From an uncultured virus (IMG/VR IMGVR_UViG_3300017971_006749) (taxonomy: Duplodnaviria; Heunggongvirae; Uroviricota; Caudoviricetes), in the IMG/VR virus record IMGVR_UViG_3300017971_006749: DNA of 20,000 bases, one strand, 5' to 3'. This document shows, piece after piece, positions 5,787 through 20,000 of this stretch. Numbering within the stretch: the first letter of the stretch is position 1; each line of letters begins with the position of its first letter. The translations under genes and the position numbers were made by a program. The notes below the pieces were generated by a model, which had not been told where the DNA came from, ran no database searches, and saw only the letters and a program-made list of their open reading frames with translations.

Positions 5787-6281
5787 CTAAAATCTTACTA
5801 CCCATATCTTACACTCTTTCCTGCCAACAGGTATCAATTCAATATTATTACCAAATACCTCATCTACAGCTTCTTTAACTCCTTCGCAATGAATTTGTCC
5901 ATAATCATCGCCACATAGTATGCCACCATTCCTAACCTTTGGCTTCCACGACTCTATATCTGCTTTAACATTATCATAATCGTGTAAAGCATCTATAAAC
6001 ACTAAATCTAATGATTGATTATCTATAACCTTTACTGCCATATCAGACCTTACAATCCAATACTGAATGTCTGTCTTAATTTGCTTTCGTCTCTCAATTA
6101 ACCATTCTGCAAAAGGATAATACTGAACAGGATCAATACAATAATATTCGTCTAATTCACAAGCCTCTAAAATATGTCTGGCTGTCTTGCCATGATAGAC
6201 CCCTATCTCTGCTATTTTTCTATAATTATTAGTTTTAATTAAGTCTATCAATACCTGCCAACGATTCATGTCTAATTCCAT
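5787..6281 (-). CDS. class I SAM-dependent methyltransferase (Methyltransf_24-like)
   Basis: EIGVYHGKT, LDLVFIDALH and GGILCGDDY motifs. Start uncertain: TTG 6308, ATG 6281 or ATG 6269. Confidence 0.85.
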   Translation of the reverse strand: MELDMNRWQVLIDLIKTNNYRKIAEIGVYHGKTARHILEACELDEYYCIDPVQYYPFAEWLIERRKQIKTDIQYWIVRSDMAVKVIDNQSLDLVFIDALHDYDNVKADIESWKPKVRNGGILCGDDYGQIHCEGVKEAVDEVFGNNIELIPVGRKECKIWVVRF

Positions 6282-6353
6282 AAAAATAGGAGCATCGCCC
6301 AAAATCAAGTCCCACCTCCGCAGATAAAACTCGAAATCTACGACGATGCTCCT
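6282..6353 (-). terminator. long irregular hairpin followed by ATTTTT (terminator, processing site or switch)
   Basis: AGGAGCATCG/CGATGCTCCT perfect 10-bp arms (6288-6297 and 6344-6353). On the minus strand the interior also pairs, with many G-U pairs. Confidence 0.55.
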
Positions 6354-7957: not shown

Positions 7958-8091
7958 GTACAAAATGGGCTGTATTCAATTCCACCGCCTAAAATGATAT
8001 ATTACCCAGACCACCATATAGAATCTCGTTAGAGACGAAGTATGAAAGTTTAACAGGTATATTAGACATTATCTTAATTCCAAAAATTACA

Positions 8092-8157
8092 GGTGAGAAA
8101 GAATGGATATATAATAATATCTTATATTATTATTATATATCCATCTTCCTTATCACC
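8092..8157. repeat. long AT-rich inverted repeat (possible terminator, cruciform or operator)
   Basis: Perfect 17-bp arms atggatatataataata (8103-8119) and tattattatatatccat (8128-8144) with an 8-nt loop, extended by ggtga/tcacc. Followed by TGTAATTTTT on the minus strand. Confidence 0.8.
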
Positions 8158-8166
8158 ATGATTTGT

Positions 8167-8193
8167 ATATTAGAGCCATATTAGAGTATATTA
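8167..8193. repeat. phased ATATTA direct repeats (3 copies)
   Basis: atatta at 8167, 8178 and 8188 (spacing 11 and 10 bp). Confidence 0.45.
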
Positions 8194-8385
8194 CACCAAC
8201 TTAGATGGATCAATATCTAATGCCAATGCTATCGACCGTAATGTTGATACAGTGATGCCTTTTCCATCTAATACATTTCGTATTGTGCCTATTGATAATT
8301 TGCTTTCTTCGGCAAGTTGACATATCTTTTTATTGTTATCTTTCATCAGTTGTCTGAATACATTACTTCGTTCTTGATTCGTCAT
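8191..8385 (-). CDS. XRE/Cro-like HTH protein
   Basis: QLAEESKLSIGTIRNVLDGKGITVSTLRSIALALDI HTH pattern; SD AGGAG. Confidence 0.8.
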   Translation of the reverse strand: MTNQERSNVFRQLMKDNNKKICQLAEESKLSIGTIRNVLDGKGITVSTLRSIALALDIDPSKLV

Positions 8386-8531
8386 TTATCTTCTCCTTGC
8401 TTTTCACTCCTATCAATTACCCTTCGCGTTTTTTCAGCAGTATCACCTGTTCGTTTACCTGATACCAATATTGAAATTATCACAAGCTCAAATAAAACAA
8501 CTATACCCGCTGCAATAAATACTGTAATCAT
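8382..8531 (-). CDS. small membrane-anchored protein (49 aa); not in the ORF track
   Basis: MITVFIAAGIVVLFELVIISILVSGKRTGDTAEKTRRVIDRSEKQGEDK. SD GAGGAG; ATGA overlaps at both ends. Confidence 0.7.
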   Translation of the reverse strand: MITVFIAAGIVVLFELVIISILVSGKRTGDTAEKTRRVIDRSEKQGEDK

Positions 8532-8668
8532 GACGGTCTCCTCGTTACTGGTCTGTAGTTGATAAACTGTAAATGTTTATGCAATTTCCTGGCCTCTCGT
8601 TTGTTAATTGCCCGTTTTACGTTCATTCTAAATCTTTCTCTAAGTGTCCATTTGTGATTGAACTCCAT
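8528..8668 (-). CDS. small basic hypothetical protein (46 aa); not in the ORF track
   Basis: MEFNHKWTLRERFRMNVKRAINKREARKLHKHLQFINYRPVTRRPS. Strong SD GGAGGTG; ATGA overlap with the next gene. Confidence 0.7.
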   Translation of the reverse strand: MEFNHKWTLRERFRMNVKRAINKREARKLHKHLQFINYRPVTRRPS

Positions 8669-8674
8669 GCTATA

Positions 8675-8890
8675 TCACCTCCCCCTTAATCTCTTCCAAT
8701 TATCTCTATGCGCCGGTTCAAGTATTTTTAAGCTGCTCTTCCATTCGGCAGAAGAGCTCCTACGACTTGGATCGTAGGGTAGATACCAGCAGACCTCTAC
8801 TGTAAAGCTGTTCTCTCCACCATAGATTATACCTTCATATTGCGATAATTCTGGATTGGTATAACCTACTATTTCACCTACGTTGAACAT
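8675..8890 (-). CDS. small hypothetical protein (possible SH3-like/KOW-like beta fold)
   Basis: MFNVGEIVGY...GII...VEVCW pattern. Start reassigned to ATG 8890 after SD GAGGAG. Confidence 0.6.
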   Translation of the reverse strand: MFNVGEIVGYTNPELSQYEGIIYGGENSFTVEVCWYLPYDPSRRSSSAEWKSSLKILEPAHRDNWKRLRGR

Positions 8891-8903
8891 TTTAACTCCT
8901 CTC

Positions 8904-9983
8904 TTAATACACCTCATAATAACAGCCAGTATTGGCTATTGCTTCCTGACTCTCTTTAACTCCATGATAGTCAGTTAGGTCTTTGTCAAATACCATCCTA
9001 TGAACTATATCACACCATCTCAAAGCACCCATATCAGAACTAATTATCTGTGTCTTATCCATGCTGTAAATACCTGCCATCTCAACACCTAAGACCTCAG
9101 CTAAGTCTGTCGCTATTCTGGTCATCATATCCTCAGTGATAGTCCTTGAAGCTGAAACGTAGTCACTGCCATATTGGTATAGTTTATCATCCTTTTCATG
9201 TTCGATAAAACTGGCTAAGTCTATCATGCCATCGAAAGTTTTACCTTCATACTGTCTCAACATTTCTTCTACAGCTTTCTGACTAGCTCCGTCTGTCCAC
9301 TCAACATATATCGAACTGCCACCTGAATACCTGTCTGACCTCACCTTAAATTTCTGGCCGGGAAACTTGGTTTTCAAGTTCTTACGAACTATCTTAGCCA
9401 CGTCTACTACGTCAATATATACTCTCTCTAGCTCTGGTTTTGGCTCAACTAATACTGTATCATCATCTGCTCTAGCTTCACCTAACTGTCTGAGAAGTTT
9501 ATCAACATAAGTTTCTTCAAGTATGCCAGTATCTAAGTCATAAGTATCAAGAAATTCTTGCGCATCCTCCTTATCTTTCTGATCTGTATCAATTATCCAT
9601 TGCAGGAAGTTCCTGATATGCTGTGCTATACAAAATTCAGCATCTTTATATGACCAATGCTGTACGTCAAAACGGCCTTCATAAATATAGCCATCCTCAA
9701 AGATAACCTTGAAATCGTGTTTATCATAAGCTCCACCTTTGGGAGCGGTCGTGCTATTCTCAATTATCTGTCTACTGGCACTAGCGAAGTCTTTAAAGAA
9801 CCATGATAAACATAGGTTACTCGGCCCCTCTGCTCTATCAAGCATTATGCCTTTGACCTGTATCTTTTTCTTTGTCGTTAGTTGCCTATCTACACATTCT
9901 TTACAAATAACAAACTTTCCATTAACTGTTATTGATTCCATATCTTCTATTGGTTTTTCTGTGTGGCAAATATAACAAGTCAT
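8904..9983 (-). CDS. multidomain protein: N-terminal Zn ribbon, LPD25-like domain and LPD29 (large polyvalent protein-associated) domain
   Basis: CYIC...CKEC at the N-terminus. 'YDKHDFKVIFEDGYIYEGRFD' is LPD25-like. 'AKIVRKNLKTKFPGQKFKVRSDRYSGGSSIYVEWTDG...FDGMID' is the LPD29 signature. Confidence 0.7.
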   Translation of the reverse strand: MTCYICHTEKPIEDMESITVNGKFVICKECVDRQLTTKKKIQVKGIMLDRAEGPSNLCLSWFFKDFASASRQIIENSTTAPKGGAYDKHDFKVIFEDGYIYEGRFDVQHWSYKDAEFCIAQHIRNFLQWIIDTDQKDKEDAQEFLDTYDLDTGILEETYVDKLLRQLGEARADDDTVLVEPKPELERVYIDVVDVAKIVRKNLKTKFPGQKFKVRSDRYSGGSSIYVEWTDGASQKAVEEMLRQYEGKTFDGMIDLASFIEHEKDDKLYQYGSDYVSASRTITEDMMTRIATDLAEVLGVEMAGIYSMDKTQIISSDMGALRWCDIVHRMVFDKDLTDYHGVKESQEAIANTGCYYEVY

Positions 9984-10604: not shown

Positions 10605-11096
10605 TTATTTATATTGCGCCCTATACCGTTGATAGATAGGAACTAACTCATCGACACATTCATTGCAGTAATATGTATGCCCCTTGAACTCTGTATGAGC
10701 ATCTTCGTAAATTGGATGACTTGAATATCTACCAAATGTCATTACTGAATTATGCTCAGGACATATCGGACTACTGTTTTCTAATGCCGCTCTCCTGCAT
10801 GTTCTGGTCAATCGTTCACCCCAACGATAATCAACTTGATTCATCGGCCCTTCCACCCTTGCAACCCATCCTTCATCAGCCAATTCTTCAAGAGCTTGCC
10901 ACCACTCGTAATCTCCATAATCTCCATATCGTTCCCGATCATTCTCTTCTGTTGGAAATTTATAGAGATAAGTTATCTTGGTTGACTCAGTATAAACCTT
11001 TATTACCCAATTCAATACCTTTCGTTTCATCTCTTGTCGTATTTCAGTCATTTCATTTTCCGCTGTTTTATAACCCCTACCCATTTGACCTCTCAT
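10605..11096 (-). CDS. hypothetical protein, possible winged helix plus C-terminal Zn finger
   Basis: 'ALEELADEGWVARV' is wHTH-like; CPEH...CNEC. SD AGGAG; first gene after the 11148-11176 promoter. Confidence 0.65.
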   Translation of the reverse strand: MRGQMGRGYKTAENEMTEIRQEMKRKVLNWVIKVYTESTKITYLYKFPTEENDRERYGDYGDYEWWQALEELADEGWVARVEGPMNQVDYRWGERLTRTCRRAALENSSPICPEHNSVMTFGRYSSHPIYEDAHTEFKGHTYYCNECVDELVPIYQRYRAQYK

Positions 11097-11147
11097 CTTA
11101 TGTCTCCTTCTAAAGTGTTAAGTAACTTATTTCCTCTTCCATCTAAG

Positions 11148-11176
11148 ATTATAACAGATTATAATATAAAAGTCAA
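11148..11176 (-). promoter_or_regulatory. strong sigma70-type promoter driving the small-gene cassette
   Basis: TTGACT-17 nt-TATAAT with extended TGn and an AT-rich UP-like tract upstream. Confidence 0.85.
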
Positions 11177-11230
11177 GAGAAAAATACAAAAAAATAGACT
11201 TTTTCTAGAAAAAAGCCTAAAAAAGTAGAT

Positions 11231-11280
11231 ATATTACAAAATATTATGGATATATTAGCAGGTATATTAAGAATATGTTA
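11231..11280. repeat. phased ATATTA direct-repeat array
   Basis: atatta at 11231, 11241, 11252 and 11264, plus atgtta at 11275 (spacing 10-12 bp). Confidence 0.55.
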
Positions 11281-11316
11281 CAGGATAGATAACGTTAATG
11301 ATAATAATAGTTGACA

Positions 11317-11461
11317 TAAAAAAACCATTCAGAGAAAATACTGTGTGCGGTTGATGGAGTCTTTGCGACTCGGAAGGTTTTATCTCTGAATGGTTTAATA
11401 GGTATACTGACAATTTTGGTAATGATATGGCCGTCCTTACTATGAATCTGGCCTTGCTATA
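11317..11461 (-). ncRNA. candidate small non-coding RNA (~145 nt)
   Basis: Lies between a perfect promoter (11468-11496) and a 14-bp stem (11322-11335/11383-11396) ending in a U7 tract. Internal GAGTC-GCAAA-GACTC hairpin; no SD-led ORF. Confidence 0.5.
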
Positions 11462-11467
11462 TCTTAT

Positions 11468-11496
11468 ATTATATCATACCTCTATCATTATGTCAA
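11468..11496 (-). promoter_or_regulatory. perfect-consensus sigma70-type promoter
   Basis: TTGACA-17 nt-TATAAT with extended TGn. The -35 element overlaps the last codons (AAG TTG ACA TAA) of the upstream methyltransferase gene. Confidence 0.85.
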
Positions 11497-12114
11497 CTTT
11501 TCATAAATAATTCCCCAAGGTGTGAAGCCTTTACCTCTATATCTGTGAACCAGCTTGAAGCCTCTAACTGTTATGAAATCTATTAAATGTTGCAATGTTA
11601 GCCATTCCATACAGTCATAACTATCGCTCTTTGAGCCGCGATATCCGGGTTCTTTAGTACCACCCTTATTCTCAGTTAAGAATATACCTTGTGGCTTCAA
11701 TACTCGATATACTTCACCGATAATTTTATCAAAGTCTAATACATGATCAAGACTGTTGGTATATACAATATCTATAGTTCTGTCCTGAAAGACAAGATTG
11801 TGAAAATCTCCATGTAGGACATGATGATTATTCTCTCCCGGTTCTAAGTCAATACCAATAGCAAAATAACCCTTATCTATGAAAGCCCTTACTTCGCCGC
11901 CTACCCTTGCCCCTAGGCATAAGACATTACCTGAGGTAGGTATTTCATCCATCAGTATATCAAGTCGTTTCCCTAATGAGCCACGAATACCTATAGAAAA
12001 TCTTTCGCCAGTACCGGGAGCTTTTCGTAACTTCTCACCCTGTATATGAATATACTGGCCGTAATTCTCATAGTCTCTTCGTCTGAATCCACCTGTTATA
12101 TCAATCCAATTCAT
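11488..12114 (-). CDS. class I SAM-dependent methyltransferase (Methyltransf_11-like)
   Basis: VLCLGARVGGEV, AIGIDL, GDFHNLVF, DIVYTNSLDH and EVYRVLKPQG motifs. Tandem paralog of 12111..12770. Confidence 0.85.
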   Translation of the reverse strand: MNWIDITGGFRRRDYENYGQYIHIQGEKLRKAPGTGERFSIGIRGSLGKRLDILMDEIPTSGNVLCLGARVGGEVRAFIDKGYFAIGIDLEPGENNHHVLHGDFHNLVFQDRTIDIVYTNSLDHVLDFDKIIGEVYRVLKPQGIFLTENKGGTKEPGYRGSKSDSYDCMEWLTLQHLIDFITVRGFKLVHRYRGKGFTPWGIIYEKLT

Positions 12115-12770
12115 TTATTTTTCCTGAATAAATAACCGTAAGGTGTGGCCTTACTCTGACGATCATGGTACGAATGAAATAAAGAATAGCCCGATTGCTC
12201 TATTCTTTCAACTAACACCTTAAGAGAATCCCATTCCAGACAGTCCCAATGGTCACTTCCCATATTTTTTTTGTCTATTTCATTACTGCCAGACTTACAT
12301 TCCATCTGTAATATACCCTCAGGCTTTAATACTCGATGGATTTGTGCTAGGACTTTATCAGGTTCTAGACAATGGTCAAAGCAGTTGATATATACTATGT
12401 CTACAGAACTATCGGCAAATTCTAAATCGTGAAAGTCTCCATAAACCACATGCTGATTAGCTGGCCCGGGATTCACGTCTATACCTACAGCAAAAGCTCC
12501 CATATTAATGAAAGCCTCTACCTCTCCACCAAGTCTAGCTCCTAAACATAAGACGGACATACCATGCTTCACTATTCGTAATTGCTTAAGACGTGATTGT
12601 AATAACTGCCTTAATTGCCTACTTCGTTCTAAACACCAGCCCGGCCTTTCATCTAGCTTACTGGCTTGCATCTTTATATAGGCATTATAATCTGTATAAT
12701 TCCTCTTATATAAACCATCTAAGTCAGTCCAGCCCAATTCACTCTCATGTCGTTTCACATCAGGATTCAT
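12111..12770 (-). CDS. class I SAM-dependent methyltransferase (Methyltransf_11-like)
   Basis: VLCLGARLGGEV, GDFHDLEF and IHRVLKPEG motifs. Start reassigned to ATG 12770 (SD AGGAG, ATGA overlap). Confidence 0.85.
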   Translation of the reverse strand: MNPDVKRHESELGWTDLDGLYKRNYTDYNAYIKMQASKLDERPGWCLERSRQLRQLLQSRLKQLRIVKHGMSVLCLGARLGGEVEAFINMGAFAVGIDVNPGPANQHVVYGDFHDLEFADSSVDIVYINCFDHCLEPDKVLAQIHRVLKPEGILQMECKSGSNEIDKKNMGSDHWDCLEWDSLKVLVERIEQSGYSLFHSYHDRQSKATPYGYLFRKNK

Positions 12771-13321
12771 GCTCTTCTCCTGAATAAATATGAATGTATA
12801 TCTTGACGTGGTGGACACTCTGGCTGTCCATGACTTAATAGATCAAAGCCAAGTCTGTGCATGAATGATAGAAATTTTGCGGGTGTGAAATATGTTAGAT
12901 GCTCTCCCGGCTTATAATGCTTCCAATCCTCTAAGACTTTATCCTCTGGCAATATTGGTATGGTAGCAGCTAAAGCCTTAGACTTATCAATCCATTCAAG
13001 CATTTTTCCATCAGGCTTATGTTCCCAATCCACATGCTCTAATACATCCCACAAACATATCAAGTCATAATTTTTATGCCTGATACCTGTCTGAGGATAA
13101 CTGGCTTTTTCTGAGATCATGCCAATATCAAAACTATCTACTATAATACCATCAGGCCTATATAACGAAAAGGCATTATTACCACACCCATAATCAAGTA
13201 TTGTCTTAGGATGTAATTGAGCTACCAATTTCCATCTGATATTACTTATCTCCTGCATTGAACCAGCATACATTTCCAGAAGATTCTCATAGTATTCGAC
13301 ATCGTACCCATCAAAAGGCAT
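12767..13321 (-). CDS. class I SAM-dependent methyltransferase (Methyltransf_23-like)
   Basis: ILDYGCG, YDLICLWDVLEH and PGEHLTYF motifs; SD GGAGGT. Confidence 0.85.
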   Translation of the reverse strand: MPFDGYDVEYYENLLEMYAGSMQEISNIRWKLVAQLHPKTILDYGCGNNAFSLYRPDGIIVDSFDIGMISEKASYPQTGIRHKNYDLICLWDVLEHVDWEHKPDGKMLEWIDKSKALAATIPILPEDKVLEDWKHYKPGEHLTYFTPAKFLSFMHRLGFDLLSHGQPECPPRQDIHSYLFRRRA

Positions 13322-13334
13322 TATTACCTCCTTG

Positions 13335-13730
13335 TTATTGATATGTTTGTAATAAAGCTATATGAGCATCCATAGCAGTTAAAGCTGTATTAGCTTCTAT
13401 TAGCCAATCGTCTTTAGGCACACTGGCACGACCATCAGGCTCGGCAGGATCGGCTACCGAAACATAATAGCCAGCAGGTTTATTCTGTATATTCACAATA
13501 TCTGCCGATAAGCCAAGTCGTACTTGAGAATATAAGGCTAACTGACCATCAATCAAACCTTCCACTGCTTTTGGTACACGAATCATAGGCCGCCACGTAG
13601 ACGGTGCCTGACCATAAACCAGTAATGCTAATAATTCAGCATTAGCATGAGCCTTTTGATTGATCGTATACGACATCCATATCCCAATAATTGCTATTAT
13701 CAATAAGGCTGCTACCAAACTCTTCTTCAT
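13335..13730 (-). CDS. secreted or membrane-anchored hypothetical protein
   Basis: MKKSLVAALLIIAIIGIW...AHA signal-like N-terminus; SD GGAGGT before ATG 13730. Confidence 0.7.
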   Translation of the reverse strand: MKKSLVAALLIIAIIGIWMSYTINQKAHANAELLALLVYGQAPSTWRPMIRVPKAVEGLIDGQLALYSQVRLGLSADIVNIQNKPAGYYVSVADPAEPDGRASVPKDDWLIEANTALTAMDAHIALLQTYQ

Positions 13731-13735
13731 GATCA

Positions 13736-15013
13736 TTACCTCCAATCAACTACCGTTGCATTTCTTGAAGTCCTTGCTGCTTCTATATCTTCTACTGAAC
13801 TACCTGCGGCATGATACAAAGCTTCTAATATCTTAGGATAGTTAATCGCTCCATGCCCGTTATAAATATCAGGAGAGTTATACCGGTCAGAGCCTTGAAA
13901 TATAAATTTCCGAGTACACCATTTCTTTGCTCTTAGCATAACCGCTGCCCCTGTTACATGGGGAGCGGAAAGACTCGTACCAGATACATTGACAATATCT
14001 CCCTTTTTGTTATAGGCAGGAATATATACACCAGGAGCCATGACCCCTGATTTTTTCAGCATATCGCCATAATTGCTGAATGTTGCTCTTGCCCCTGAAA
14101 CTTCTAATGCCCCAACACTTATACACAGGCCAAATCGTGCTGGATAGACTAAATGGTCGCCTTGATCTGTCTTACCGTCATTCCCTGCTGATGCTATGCA
14201 GCCAATTCCCTGTCCTGCACATGCCAGAACAGCATCCTTAAAAGCCTTTGATCCACTATAGCCACCAAGACTGATATTTACAAGCTCTATTTCAGAGTTA
14301 TTACTTATCCATTCAAGTCCTTTTATAATCGTGAAATATGACCCACGTCCGTTACTACTTAATACCTTTACTGCATAAAATTCTGTATCTGGCATCACAC
14401 CGACAATGCCCTTACCATTTCGTCTTGCGCCAATCACTGAGGCAATATACGTCCCATGATTATTGTCATCTTCCCAATTATCATTATTGCCATAAAAATT
14501 ATATCCACCAACAACCTTGCCAGCAAGGTCGTCTACCTTAGATGATATACCTGTATCTAGTATAGCTACCTTTATAGGAGCTAAGGTTACACCATCTAAG
14601 CCCATGGTTTTATCCCAGACCTTATTTGCGCCAACTCTCTTTACACCTCCCGGTATTACTTCTCCCGTAGCCAAGCCTCTAAGTCCACCAGTAGGGCCTG
14701 CCAGCATCTCCCATAGCCCTTGTGGTTCAGGAGCAGCCAGAGCATAAGCAGTACCATTAGGCTCGATATATTCCACTATATCCAAATGTTTTAGAAAGGC
14801 AATATCGGAATCTTTTAGTTTACATAATACGGCATCTATGAGTGTCAGTTTATCGAGAACCTTTATACCAGCCTCCTCAAATACCTGTATAACAGATTCA
14901 GCCTCTTTAGTAAGTTTGACTATATACTCATTAGAACTGCCGCCGCCATTCCAGATAGAACACCCTACCAACAATATAATAAACAATAATAAACCTATCA
15001 ATACTTTTCCCAT
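13736..15013 (-). CDS. subtilisin-like serine protease (S8), predicted lipoprotein with an I9-like propeptide
   Basis: Lipobox LVGC, propeptide ending VEYIEPN, catalytic triad ILDTG / HGT / SGTS, and oxyanion motif SAGN. Confidence 0.9.
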   Translation of the reverse strand: MGKVLIGLLLFIILLVGCSIWNGGGSSNEYIVKLTKEAESVIQVFEEAGIKVLDKLTLIDAVLCKLKDSDIAFLKHLDIVEYIEPNGTAYALAAPEPQGLWEMLAGPTGGLRGLATGEVIPGGVKRVGANKVWDKTMGLDGVTLAPIKVAILDTGISSKVDDLAGKVVGGYNFYGNNDNWEDDNNHGTYIASVIGARRNGKGIVGVMPDTEFYAVKVLSSNGRGSYFTIIKGLEWISNNSEIELVNISLGGYSGSKAFKDAVLACAGQGIGCIASAGNDGKTDQGDHLVYPARFGLCISVGALEVSGARATFSNYGDMLKKSGVMAPGVYIPAYNKKGDIVNVSGTSLSAPHVTGAAVMLRAKKWCTRKFIFQGSDRYNSPDIYNGHGAINYPKILEALYHAAGSSVEDIEAARTSRNATVVDWR

Positions 15014-15037
15014 GATTCTAATTCTCCTTTTTATAAA

Positions 15038-16309
15038 TTACGATTTTCCACCATTCAGACCGTTTTCTTCAAGATACTTATAAACACTTCGCCGCTCATG
15101 TTGTAAGTCAACCTCTTGCCAATCCTTATAACTCACGATAAATGATGATTCTAACTCAGTATCTACTGTCCCTATCATTGAACTGTAATCCTGATATATA
15201 CAATCTTTTATTATCGCTCCAAATTTATCTGGGTATTTAGCTATACGACTGCCAGGATAAGGTACTAAGGTTGTGAATAAAACAATATCAGGCTTCGTTT
15301 GCTCGAAAAACTTTATACTTCGTTCTGCTATACCCGGTTCTTCTCCCGGCAATCCCATGATCATATAAAGCCGTACACGAATACCGACAGCCTTTGTTCG
15401 TTCGATAGCTGCCGCTGCCTGCTCTACTGTAATACCTTTACCAGTTAAAGCTAGTGCCTGTTCAGAGACAGTTTCAAGCCCATAACCTATCTCCCGACAT
15501 CCGGCATCCGCCATAGCCTGTAGTTCTTCTTTCGTTTGTCCTACATCTACTCGTGAACTGCATCGCCATTGGATATGGAGCGATTTTAATTGCTCACATA
15601 AGGTCAGTAGTCTATTACTATCAAGAGCCATTGTATCGTCTTGAAACCTGCATTGCTCTATACCATACCTATTCTTAAGATATTGAATTTCGTCTACAAT
15701 ATTATCCGGTGTTCTAAATGTTACCTGTGTACCCCAGAGAGGTTTACTCGCACAAAATGAACAGCTATAAGGACACCCTCTGGATGTTATCATAGTAGTA
15801 CCTATTTTGCCTTTATCCACAAGCGACTTACTTATAACCAGATTTGAGGGCATTAAATGTCGTGCAGGGAAGGGTATACTATCAATATTTTTAATACGTT
15901 CTGAATGATATACTTTCTTCTCGGTATTTCCATTCTTGAAATCCGTCATCACATCAAGTATAGCTGTTTCTCCTTCACCCATTACTCTCTTATCAAATGT
16001 AGGGTCTATTTCTTCGTTAGCTACTGAGGCATGTACTCCACCTAAAACAGTATAGGCATTATATTTTTTCTTAACACGTTTTGCTATTTCTATAGCAGCC
16101 GGATATTCTGGTGTGGTGGCTGTAAAACCATAAATGTCTGCCATTGGAAGACTCTTATCCATACCTCGTAGGTCGGCGATAATAACTGTATATCCTGCTT
16201 GCTCAAGCACCCCTGCAATATATAATATCCCTAATGGATTATTTTTATACATATCAATAAGATAAAAAGACCCGGGAATTACAAGGCATATCGTCAAGGT
16301 GTTTTTCAT
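15038..16309 (-). CDS. B12-binding radical SAM protein (class B methyltransferase-like)
   Basis: PLGILYIAGVL and VLGGVHAS in the B12 domain; SRGCPYSCSFC (CxxxCxxC), GLE, MGLPGE and PYPGS. Start reassigned to ATG 16309 (ATGA overlap). Confidence 0.9.
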   Translation of the reverse strand: MKNTLTICLVIPGSFYLIDMYKNNPLGILYIAGVLEQAGYTVIIADLRGMDKSLPMADIYGFTATTPEYPAAIEIAKRVKKKYNAYTVLGGVHASVANEEIDPTFDKRVMGEGETAILDVMTDFKNGNTEKKVYHSERIKNIDSIPFPARHLMPSNLVISKSLVDKGKIGTTMITSRGCPYSCSFCASKPLWGTQVTFRTPDNIVDEIQYLKNRYGIEQCRFQDDTMALDSNRLLTLCEQLKSLHIQWRCSSRVDVGQTKEELQAMADAGCREIGYGLETVSEQALALTGKGITVEQAAAAIERTKAVGIRVRLYMIMGLPGEEPGIAERSIKFFEQTKPDIVLFTTLVPYPGSRIAKYPDKFGAIIKDCIYQDYSSMIGTVDTELESSFIVSYKDWQEVDLQHERRSVYKYLEENGLNGGKS

Positions 16310-17013
16310 TGTCCAGCCAGTTCTTTCTGTTTCTTTTCCCAATATATGAGGTCAGGATTAATATCATTTTCAGTGAGTGTGGCAGTTATCGCCTTACCAT
16401 TACCATAAATTGGGCCACCATGCTGAACGAAAACAGCATAACAAATAGCATGTAAATAACCCGCCAGACGTACCCGTAAAGCAAAATCATGATGACCTCG
16501 ATACCACCTAAAGTTTTCGTCAAATAATCCGATATCATCAATGACCGTTCGTTTGATATAAAGAGATTCAGCATCTACCTTATCCTGTGTCACCATGTAG
16601 GGAATCCAGCCAGCTTTACCCATAGGACATGGAGGCTGATTCGCAGGATGTTGTTGTGGATTCTGTGCTGTTTCCAGAAGCGGCCCAACACAACCAATAC
16701 CTTTTTCAGCATAAGCTACCTGTTGTAATTTTTCTACCATATTAGTCGTATGAAGATATAGGTCATCTGTCAATAAAACCACATCATCGTTTTCAGATAA
16801 CTTTATTCCTATATTCCATGCTGAATAAGGACTGAAAGGCACAGGAGCATCTACATATTGAAACATGCTATATTTATTTCTTATATCATCTGTAAGTTCA
16901 TGTAATACGATTAAAGGATATGAGATAGTTTCCAAATACGACATAGCAAAAATATCAAATACCCAATCATGCTTACTAGAAACTATACATGTAACATTAG
17001 GCAGGTTGCTCAT
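16306..17013 (-). CDS. GT2-family glycosyltransferase
   Basis: AWNIGIK, VVLLTDD, IGLFDENF, DFALRVRLAG and VQH motifs. Confidence 0.8.
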   Translation of the reverse strand: MSNLPNVTCIVSSKHDWVFDIFAMSYLETISYPLIVLHELTDDIRNKYSMFQYVDAPVPFSPYSAWNIGIKLSENDDVVLLTDDLYLHTTNMVEKLQQVAYAEKGIGCVGPLLETAQNPQQHPANQPPCPMGKAGWIPYMVTQDKVDAESLYIKRTVIDDIGLFDENFRWYRGHHDFALRVRLAGYLHAICYAVFVQHGGPIYGNGKAITATLTENDINPDLIYWEKKQKELAGQ

Positions 17014-19150
17014 AACTGTCTCCGGGAAAATATTTCTGCAACCAGTCTAATTCGTTCCGCTCAGGATGTAATTGCATCCAGCCACCTGTACCCCGCTTCA
17101 CATCCAGCAACATATCGAAATATTCATCATACATCCACTTAACACGATCTAAAGTAAAATTCGCCATAGCATATCTATAACAATCAGCAGGTTTAATCCT
17201 GCCTATATTCTGTGCCGCCCTGACAAATTGACTAAGGGTTCTGCAACGATAACCGGTTTTGTTATGTATTACCAGTTCCTGAAATGCACCCCAATCGGAT
17301 GTAATTACAGGAGTGCCCGAAAATGCAGCCTCTATTATCACGCCACCGAAAGGTTCAACATACTGTGTTGGTAGAAATAATGCCCTTGCATTTGCTAATA
17401 ATTTCTTCCGTTCCTCTACACCAACAAAGCCTATATATTCTACACCCGGATGATCAAGGTTAATACCTTCACCACCATTCTGTCCTGCGATTATTAACTT
17501 CGCTCCTATAGCATTGATAATAGCTATCGCCTCTCGAATACCTTTACGAACAATCACCCTGCCAAGAAAAACGAAATAATCGCTTTTCTTATCTTGGTAG
17601 CAAAAATCATCAGGGTCAAAATAATTAGGGATTACAACATCATACCATTTACCATTACCCTGTTTCTGTAGACCCCAATTATAGTGCATGTGAGAAGAGG
17701 ACTCAAAAACCTTAAATCTGCAAATAGGGTTATTATAACCAATACCCATCTCTACAACTAAATATAATTTATCAGGCATATTGATATATGAAGTATTGAA
17801 AGCTTCCAGTATAGGTATATATGCCTGAGGTGAGAATGGAATCAGCAGAAAATCATCAACCTGCATTCTTTTCTTTATCTCTGGTATAGTGTTCTTATTG
17901 AATGTCTTATAAGCTAAATCACCTATATTATGCTTATAAGGTACTTTCTTCATATCGTAATCACCATACGTCTCCTTGATAACTTTTTTGGTAGATACTT
18001 GGATGAATTCATCACACTCAACATCTGATCCCTCAACACCATAGAAAAATACCGTATGACCCAGACTCTTTAGCATCTTTCCCATTTTAATAACTTTCTG
18101 AGAAAAAGCACAGGCAAGAGAATCCCCTTTATCAGTTGGTACATGAGGCAATCCTAAAAGATGAAAACGTTTCTTTTGTCTTACTACTCCGGTAAAGACT
18201 GGAAAATCATCAGGAACTTCAGTCGCTATTTCAGGTATATTCGATAATATATCTTTCCATAACTTCGGCTGTAATCCGGAAAATACGGGCAAATCAACAT
18301 TTCGCTGTATAGGAGTTGAGCTTTCTTGTTTCGATAAGCCGGGATTCCATTCATTCTGATCAAGTGTATTTCGTACTAATCTAGCAAATAATATATCACT
18401 ATCTTTAACAAATTGTTCGGATAACTTATTAAAAAATGGAGAATCATTAGCAAAAGCATGGACTATTTCTACCTCAGATGGTAATTCATTTTGAGTATCA
18501 ATTAACCTATCTACTACCCGGTCACTACCACCTCCACCCAGAATACCGTATTTAACCACATCTATTCTATCACGGCATGATCGTACCGTATTATTCAGAG
18601 TAATAGAAATCTCTCCCCTTTGCAGATCGGGTTTCTTTGCTATAACTTCTGACTTCTCTAATACCTGTTTCATAAGTTTCGATGCTGGCTTAGACATCAC
18701 AATAGAAGCATTATAGAAAGGATAGCCGGGGTCGTTTGGTAGGGATTCATCAGGAAGGACTAGCTCTTTATCACTATTCATCAAATGATATAAAGCATCT
18801 TTTACACAAAATGTATCAAGGTCAAGACACATACCACCATATTTATATAGTATCTGCCATTCAATTAAATTACTGACATCCGTACAATAACGTAAACTTT
18901 GTTTATCAGGTAGAGCAGCAATATCCGGCCTGTCGATAATGTGTAATTCAATCTTATCCTTAAGAAGCGGCCAATATTCACCTTGTGGCTCATCAAATGC
19001 CCATAATAATACTCTATCGGTATCTTGAGTTTTAATAACACTAAGGATAGCTAAATAATATCCATAAACCAATATATTACTGGTTAAAATAAAATGAATT
19101 GGTATCCAACATGTTTTCAATGTCTGTCTATTCTTATTCCGGGTATTCAT
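16997..19150 (-). CDS. bifunctional glycosyltransferase: N-terminal GT32-like (DxD) domain plus C-terminal GT4 (GT-B) domain
   Basis: N-terminal ILYKYGGMCLDLD. C-terminal FVFLGRVIVRKG and EPFGGVIIEAAFSGTPVITSDWGAFQE (EX7E motif). Confidence 0.85.
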   Translation of the reverse strand: MNTRNKNRQTLKTCWIPIHFILTSNILVYGYYLAILSVIKTQDTDRVLLWAFDEPQGEYWPLLKDKIELHIIDRPDIAALPDKQSLRYCTDVSNLIEWQILYKYGGMCLDLDTFCVKDALYHLMNSDKELVLPDESLPNDPGYPFYNASIVMSKPASKLMKQVLEKSEVIAKKPDLQRGEISITLNNTVRSCRDRIDVVKYGILGGGGSDRVVDRLIDTQNELPSEVEIVHAFANDSPFFNKLSEQFVKDSDILFARLVRNTLDQNEWNPGLSKQESSTPIQRNVDLPVFSGLQPKLWKDILSNIPEIATEVPDDFPVFTGVVRQKKRFHLLGLPHVPTDKGDSLACAFSQKVIKMGKMLKSLGHTVFFYGVEGSDVECDEFIQVSTKKVIKETYGDYDMKKVPYKHNIGDLAYKTFNKNTIPEIKKRMQVDDFLLIPFSPQAYIPILEAFNTSYINMPDKLYLVVEMGIGYNNPICRFKVFESSSHMHYNWGLQKQGNGKWYDVVIPNYFDPDDFCYQDKKSDYFVFLGRVIVRKGIREAIAIINAIGAKLIIAGQNGGEGINLDHPGVEYIGFVGVEERKKLLANARALFLPTQYVEPFGGVIIEAAFSGTPVITSDWGAFQELVIHNKTGYRCRTLSQFVRAAQNIGRIKPADCYRYAMANFTLDRVKWMYDEYFDMLLDVKRGTGGWMQLHPERNELDWLQKYFPGDSYEQPA

Positions 19151-19166
19151 TTCTATTCCTTTTTTG

Positions 19167-20000
<834 letters not shown>

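Follow-up and report, generated by a model that had tools for sequence, protein, structure and literature searches.

A candidate small RNA transcription unit with a perfect promoter and tandem terminator-like hairpins in an uncultured phage-like element

Between a methyltransferase gene and the gene of a small protein without known family, the DNA analyzed here (a stretch of 20,000 nucleotides from an uncultured virus, hereafter the window) carries what is best read as a self-contained non-coding transcription unit, in which an exceptionally good promoter (P1) leads into about 145 nt without credible coding capacity that end in a long hairpin with a U7 tract (T1), followed by a second terminator-like hairpin (T2; Table 1). 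The promoter, the lack of coding capacity, the two hairpins, and the absence of an antiterminator rest on sequence and computation, and the feature is real and cleanly delimited, an orphan instance of a type that is not unusual. The P1 unit probably gives rise to a small RNA; that this RNA accumulates and has a function is what we infer. The best explanation, which we hold with middling confidence, is a candidate phage or mobile-element small RNA (sRNA) that would act in trans and that represents an orphan of a known general kind. The initial annotation had proposed a stand-alone sRNA at this place, and the architectural part of that proposal stands, including the exceptional promoter, the absence of an open reading frame (ORF) led by a Shine-Dalgarno (SD) sequence, the hairpin with U7, and the separate promoter of the next gene (P2), to which a backup terminator can now be added. 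The specific roles that had been suggested for the RNA (antitoxin, decoy) gain no support.

Table 1. Positions of the features in and around the candidate RNA unit (window coordinates).
Feature	Coordinates	Strand	Description
Methyltransferase gene	11488..12114	−	class I SAM methyltransferase, 208 aa; upstream of the candidate RNA
P1 −35 hexamer	11491..11496	−	TTGACA; doubles as the final Leu-Thr codons before the stop of ORF 11488-12114 (methyltransferase)
P1 extended −10	11468..11476	−	TGaTATAAT; TG 11476-11475, TATAAT 11473-11468, 17-nt spacer
Predicted non-coding transcript	11318..11462	−	about 145 nt; ends inferred from sequence
5' hairpin	11429..11453	−	GGCC/GGCC-closed, loop containing AAGGA; weak
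A/U-rich linker	11397..11428	−	32 nt; predicted unpaired (unpaired probabilities mostly ≥0.7)
T1	11322..11396	−	14-bp stem (11396-11383 with 11335-11322), then U7
Inner hairpin of T1	11357..11371	−	GAGUC-GCAAA-GACUC; 5 bp, enclosed by the 14-bp stem
C/A-rich 16-mer in T1	11341..11356	−	unpaired; DNA CATCAACCGCACACAG, RNA CAUCAACCGCACACAG
U7 tract of T1	11318..11324	−	first three U pairable with AAA of the 5' arm
TAATATAYC, three copies	11269-11261, 11257-11249, 11236-11228	−	in the AT-rich T1-T2 spacer
T2	11188..11219	−	second terminator; 11-bp A/U-rich stem, 3-nt loop, U7 11194-11188
P2	11148..11176	−	TTGACT-17-TGn-TATAAT, 11/12 with TG; the downstream gene's own predicted promoter
Downstream gene	10605..11096	−	163 aa, SD GAAGGAG; conserved C-terminal Cys/His (zinc-ribbon-like) domain

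Genomic setting

All credible ORFs of the 20-kb window lie tightly packed on the minus strand, at a GC content of about 36-38 % and with a GC skew that is negative throughout. We take the element to be a large phage ('phage' is a label that we infer) or some other type of mobile element that has not been cultivated, and its host as an organism that would use σ70/σA promoters and strong SD sites; the element itself is of low GC, with a Firmicute-style promoter and SD grammar. The stretch is complete in two sequencing runs (labelled sediment and seawater metagenome) and partial in a third (sediment metagenome). These three runs, the only ones listed with the stretch, all consist of DNA contigs, with no RNA run among them, and two of the three may be where this DNA comes from. 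Over the RNA region their contigs are identical to the window without any differences, and thus carry no covariation information.

A protein family scan (Pfam and PHROG) covered 28 ORFs of the window. The upstream block (11488-19988, minus strand) is of unusual composition and contains genes for a collagen-repeat protein that resembles tail fibres, for a glycosyltransferase of 717 aa, for a B12-binding radical-SAM enzyme and a subtilase, and for three SAM methyltransferases in a row. About half of the glycosyltransferase aligns with cyanophage proteins, at 45-47 % identity. Downstream of the candidate RNA follow many small proteins without known function, an LPD29-domain protein, and three Cro/CI-type helix-turn-helix (HTH) regulators, as well as a metallophosphatase, two Methyltransf_24 proteins, and an epimerase. 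The upstream block looks like a glycan- or protein-modification cassette. A search for tRNA and tmRNA genes found none. A small unlisted ORF of about 48 aa (8386-8532, minus strand), read by eye, has a good SD sequence (GAGGAG) and a hydrophobic N-terminal half, and sits in the gap between the ORFs 8675-8917 and 8191-8385.

Promoter and predicted transcript

The predicted promoter P1 combines all elements of a σ70/σA extended −10 promoter, namely TTGACA, a spacer within 17 ± 1 nt, TATAAT, and TGn, and points in the same direction as all genes of the window. The two codons that form its −35 hexamer are directly followed by the stop codon of the methyltransferase gene (11490-11488). Among the 92 promoter-like sites of the window, P1 is the only one that matches at 12 of 12 positions, the runner-up being P2 (11 of 12 plus TG), and the perfect TTGACA-17-TATAAT promoter with TGn that had been reported for this place is found exactly where it was described. 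The chance expectation for such a site was estimated from 2000 dinucleotide-preserving shuffles of the window, which gave a mean of 0.046 perfect sites per shuffled window, falling to 0.0005 when the TGn and the 17-nt spacer were also required.

Transcription was taken to start 5-8 nt past the −10 hexamer (11463-11460) and to end inside U7. The earlier statement that the roughly 145 nt after the promoter lack an SD-led ORF was confirmed by a scan of the transcribed strand, in which no start codon with an SD-like sequence and an ORF of at least 8 aa was found. The longest ORF comprises 48 aa, begins with TTG, and is devoid of an SD; it has no relatives and is itself absent among database proteins. 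A small-protein gene was rejected on these grounds. The body of the RNA has a GC content of 37.7 %, equal to the window average, as compared to 21.6 % in the 97-nt spacer between T1 and T2, a difference that fits a sequence under constraint.

As a whole, the RNA folds with −30.8 kcal/mol (z −3.13), and only one of 200 shuffled sequences was as stable. The GGCC/GGCC-closed hairpin at the 5' end is present as the initial annotation had described it, however, with a stability (−6.8 kcal/mol, z −1.56) that does not rise above chance, since 18 of 200 shuffles folded equally well.

Terminators

The 14-bp stem around GAGTC-GCAAA-GACTC, the unpaired stretch, and the U7 tract had all been noted before, and each of them was recovered at its reported position. 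The stem of T1 coincides with the inverted repeat I5 (20 nt, 90 % complementary), and its fold (−23.5 to −24.0 kcal/mol, z −6.27) was not equalled by any of 200 shuffles; T1 is the second strongest combination of a terminator-like hairpin and a T-run in the window. T2, which had escaped the initial annotation, follows T1 as a tandem hairpin shortly before the −35 hexamer of P2 and folds with −8.0 to −8.8 kcal/mol (z −2.87).

Both T1 and T2 have the stable stem-loop and the adjoining U-tract of intrinsic terminators; the combination of a short loop (3-8 nt) and a G+C-rich stem is found in neither, and a consensus terminator scan lists neither of them. T1 encloses 47 nt, as compared to the 3-8-nt loops of canonical intrinsic terminators, and T2 has fewer G-C pairs than the at least three that the scan rule demands. 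T1 and T2 are hence non-canonical candidate terminators, and the 47-nt interior makes the termination efficiency of T1 uncertain.

The hairpin scan of the window revealed no terminator-like hairpin between the stop codon of the methyltransferase gene and T1, and T1 therefore probably ends the methyltransferase mRNA as well. The sequence of the RNA would then double, as it probably does, as the 3' UTR of the methyltransferase operon. P1 and T1 accordingly have the layout of a 3'-UTR sRNA with its own promoter, in which the promoter sits where the preceding coding sequence (CDS) ends and the terminator is common to the sRNA and the mRNA.

When nascent prefixes of 60-128 nt were folded, the 5' arm of T1 was left unpaired and no antiterminator structure appeared; T1 formed once its 3' arm was present. 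With the 5' arm free in the prefixes, termination would be the default. This weakens the option of an attenuator that had been raised earlier, as does the fact that the downstream gene has its own promoter. A riboswitch or attenuator is consequently a weak explanation, there being no competing fold and both T2 and the 11/12 promoter P2 lying between T1 and the gene.

Two more operons of the window end in very long hairpins (6353-6288 and 8148-8097), and T1 may thus reflect the terminator style of the element rather than a functional RNA body. The first of these (6288-6353, minus strand) is a 66-nt hairpin of −36.6 kcal/mol that is followed by T5 and stands directly after the stop codon of a 446-aa ORF. 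The TTG that is listed as the start (6308) of a methyltransferase ORF falls within this hairpin; the more likely true start of that ORF is the ATG at 6269. The second (8097-8148, minus strand) comes after the HTH gene 8191-8385 and has a stem of 23 bp that consists almost entirely of A and U (−23.6 kcal/mol, z −6.65). With the perfect 17-nt palindrome that it contains (8103-8119 / 8128-8144), it could act either as a terminator or as an operator. Over 14 nt, its loop is identical to the −10/start region of P1 (E 0.026).

Spacer, second promoter, and downstream gene

The motif TAATATAYC, of which three copies stand in the T1-T2 spacer, has 11 copies in the whole window where 1.84 would be expected, and none of 200 shuffles reached 11. 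Further copies are located at 7996-8064 (two, upstream of a promoter at 7957-7929), at 1013-1021, and elsewhere, and the sequence TAATATACCTG is identical at 11259-11269 and 8054-8064. The motif is probably a regulator-binding site, and a candidate for the operator that one of the three HTH proteins of the Cro/CI type would recognize.

The separate promoter that had been claimed for the next gene was likewise borne out, P2 matching the consensus at 11 of 12 positions and carrying the TG. A 79-nt module (11126-11204) comprises the 3' half of T2, P2, and the first bases of the P2 transcript. In the source runs this module forms a contig piece of its own, with a depth of 16.6 as compared to about 10-11 in the flanks and with branching contigs at both ends, and the element or co-occurring relatives probably reuse the P2 module at several places. 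Unlike this module, the candidate RNA region is single-copy in the source runs. Given T2 and the independent promoter P2, the next gene is insulated from the P1 unit.

The 163-aa product of this gene was assigned to no family in Pfam or PHROG. Three recorded contigs encode it, the longest of them comprising 91,804 bases, and in the protein database it matched only itself and one partial relative (P0002), which is 60 % identical over the C-terminal 60 residues. A first search of the JGI metagenomes gave no match; an alignment-based rescan yielded two metagenome loci, L003 (162-305) and L004 (1360-1503), with 69 % identity over residues 111-158. Only the C-terminal domain is common to these loci, which have a different gene context and no similarity to the candidate RNA. 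Among species genomes there was one weak match (33 % over residues 80-123) in a metagenome-assembled genome of the Deltaproteobacteria. The Cys/His-rich C-terminal 50-60 residues, which recur in small metagenome proteins that are unrelated elsewhere, may represent an undescribed small domain.

Searches for families and relatives

The initial annotation had suggested an Rfam search and a collection of homologues from related phages, neither of which produced a relative of the candidate RNA. At gathering thresholds, Rfam 15 gave no match anywhere in the window, including the candidate RNA. Below threshold, the RNA strand scored best with the trpB motif (21.4 bits, threshold 59) and ctRNA_pND324 (20.2 bits, threshold 45), matches of a generic hairpin-plus-U type with E values of about 0.5-0.7. 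A permissive scan with E values up to 10 detected no riboswitch, ribozyme, pRNA, CRISPR-repeat, tracrRNA (RF02348), or antitermination family. Several 8-9-nt words of the candidate RNA presumably recur in the tracrRNA of Streptococcus pyogenes. We take this resemblance to be a coincidence, as the Rfam tracrRNA model is without a match at E values up to 10 and the window is devoid of cas genes.

No homologue of the RNA was detected in GenBank phages, plasmids, IMG/VR, or the loci of the relatives of the downstream protein. Nucleotide searches of the RNA region (blastn) against GenBank phages, in both near and distant modes, were without a match, and those against plasmids returned only short matches in 16 records (E at least 0.6, each covering at most 14 % of the query). 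Exact-pattern scans of IMG/VR found neither a 33-mer nor the stem arms with a variable interior. The sole IMG/VR match to a 20-mer (L002) lies inside a 547-aa ORF with unrelated flanks and was dismissed as chance. At the protein level, the 163-aa, 208-aa, and 359-aa proteins had no relatives in IMG/VR, again including an alignment-based rescan with the 163-aa protein, and neither the 446-aa nor the 163-aa protein had a tblastn match among phages.

Possible function and alternative explanations

In the scenario that we favor, the host σ70/σA polymerase would start at P1, whose −35 element the methyltransferase gene supplies with its final two codons, would transcribe about 145 nt and stop at T1, and any read-through would be caught about 100 nt further on by T2. 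The product would consist of a weak 5' hairpin, the unpaired 32-nt A/U-rich linker, and T1, which would display the 5-bp hairpin and the C/A-rich 16-mer. Such an RNA would be made as soon as the host polymerase meets the DNA, and could serve as a trans-acting riboregulator that pairs with its targets via the unpaired linker or the C/A-rich loop. Judged from sequence, trans-acting riboregulation is the most likely function of the candidate RNA.

The window itself offers no target for such pairing. In a scan of six unpaired RNA segments against the 29 in-window initiation regions, no hit stood out from shuffled queries, which did as well in 3, 36, 14, 6, 36, and 15 of 40 cases, respectively; the target prediction suggested by the initial annotation hence brought up no in-window target that exceeds the shuffled controls. 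The abundance of the RNA and the functions that had been put forward there (antitoxin-like RNA, anti-defence decoy, or trans regulator) gain no support from any match in Rfam, any homologue, any target within the window, or any toxin-like partner with an SD. A CsrA sponge was rejected, as the RNA contains just one GGA motif.

It seems very unlikely, although the orphan status of the RNA, a host-type promoter of the greatest possible strength, and the lack of a cis target allow it, that the unit encodes an abundant early phage decoy of an undescribed RNA family, which would sequester a host protein such as a guide-RNA-dependent or other RNA-binding defence effector. The hairpin embedded in T1 and the C/A-rich loop would in that case mimic a host RNA instead of pairing with an mRNA.

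Among the rival explanations, we rank highest, while still considering it rather unlikely, a terminated leader of an antitermination-controlled promoter, similar to the 6S RNA of lambda pR'-tR' or of the put/nut type. Here, a factor of the element or the nascent RNA itself would render the polymerase resistant to the terminators, and P1 would drive the downstream operon on top of P2. The position of a strong promoter some 145 nt before tandem terminators and ahead of a long string of co-oriented genes is what such a leader would look like, and the three downstream Cro/CI-type HTH regulators, together with the motif between T1 and T2, mark a regulatory hub. However, the next gene has the near-consensus promoter P2 right after T2, no Q-, N-, or LoaP/NusG-like protein was recognized in the 28 scanned ORFs, and no RNA antitermination family was matched in Rfam.

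Ranked second, and in our estimate unlikely, is the explanation that the RNA has no dedicated function at all. T1 and T2 would then simply end the methyltransferase operon and the short P1 product would be a by-product, P1 being a strong early promoter that is kept for polymerase recruitment, for insulation, or as a relic. That T1 is the first terminator past the methyltransferase stop codon agrees with this explanation, as do the long hairpins at the ends of other operons in the window, the lack of detectable relatives or of a family for the RNA, and a 5' hairpin that is not significant against shuffles. On the other hand, a perfect extended −10 promoter is very unlikely to arise by chance and would be costly if useless, and the transcribed body is not AT-rich, in contrast to the neighboring spacer.

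The spacer also invites a third explanation, to which we assign a very low probability, in which transcription from P1 would activate or prime a replication origin within this AT-rich stretch and its iteron-like repeats. The intergenic region is the largest near the center of the window, the spacer has the GC content of 21.6 % given above, and its three TAATATAYC copies are spaced by 12 and 21 nt beside a 20-nt inverted repeat. Yet the GC skew keeps its sign across the window, no replication initiator gene was recognized nearby by Pfam or PHROG, and T1 would halt transcription before the AT-rich stretch is reached; moreover, TAATATAYC is also found in the promoter region at 7996-8064, as would be expected for an operator rather than an origin.

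Last in rank, and somewhat less probable still, is a type I antitoxin RNA directed against a plus-strand mRNA of a 27-aa hydrophobic ORF (11427-11510). Over its full length this ORF lies opposite P1 and the 5' part of the RNA, and it is accompanied by a plus-strand promoter-like site (11311-11339, 10/12). However, the ORF lacks the SD that a toxin gene should have, the promoter-like site has a poor −10 element (GAAAAT) without TG, and AT-rich sequence can be expected to show short hydrophobic ORFs when read in reverse. The ORF also crosses the promoter into the coding region of the methyltransferase, which suggests chance.

To return to the trans-acting sRNA, few sRNA candidates come from uncultivated phage-like elements of marine sediments; the RNA, provided that it is made, would be one of these and would enlarge a set of phage riboregulators that is still small. 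The unit is furthermore a clean and portable promoter-terminator cassette that is easily tested in vitro. The present evidence opens no new question; the value of the unit is that of a well-delimited candidate once a host or related genomes exist.

Comparison with known systems

RNA anti-CRISPRs (Racrs) are described as solitary CRISPR-repeat mimics in viral genomes (PMC10651486). Like these, the candidate is a small non-coding viral RNA gene with a promoter of its own, and conceptually Racrs come close to the decoy of the initial annotation. Unlike them, it shows no CRISPR-repeat or tracrRNA match in Rfam at E values up to 10, and the window contains neither cas genes nor CRISPR arrays.

In phage lambda, the 6S RNA of pR'-tR' arises from a strong constitutive promoter as a short terminated RNA and is subject to antitermination by Q. 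The candidate would likewise be a short terminated RNA from a strong constitutive promoter ahead of a long block of co-oriented genes. In contrast to the lambda 6S unit, no Q-like gene was recognized, a separate promoter follows the terminators, and the genes further on resemble regulatory or early genes, not late ones.

Stand-alone phage sRNAs that run from promoter to terminator are well documented, as described for OOP and sar, of which lambda OOP measures 77 nt and is transcribed from pO, and P22 sar measures 68/69 nt (PMC12197685). Similar to OOP and sar, the candidate is a short non-coding unit with its own promoter and terminator that is placed between operons near Cro/CI-type regulators. 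It is, however, about twice as long and has no sequence or Rfam relationship to either; and whereas OOP and sar are antisense to a neighboring gene (cII and ant, respectively), all ORFs around the candidate lie on the same strand, leaving it without a cis-antisense target.

A further point of comparison is provided by the 'type I' 3'-UTR sRNAs, which are transcribed from an internal promoter and include the enterobacterial DapZ and MicL. While DapZ and MicL are chromosomal, Hfq-dependent, and controlled by σE or HilD, the candidate has a housekeeping-consensus promoter and resides on a phage-like element; as in DapZ and MicL, its promoter reaches into the 3' end of the CDS that precedes it, and its terminator is common with the mRNA.
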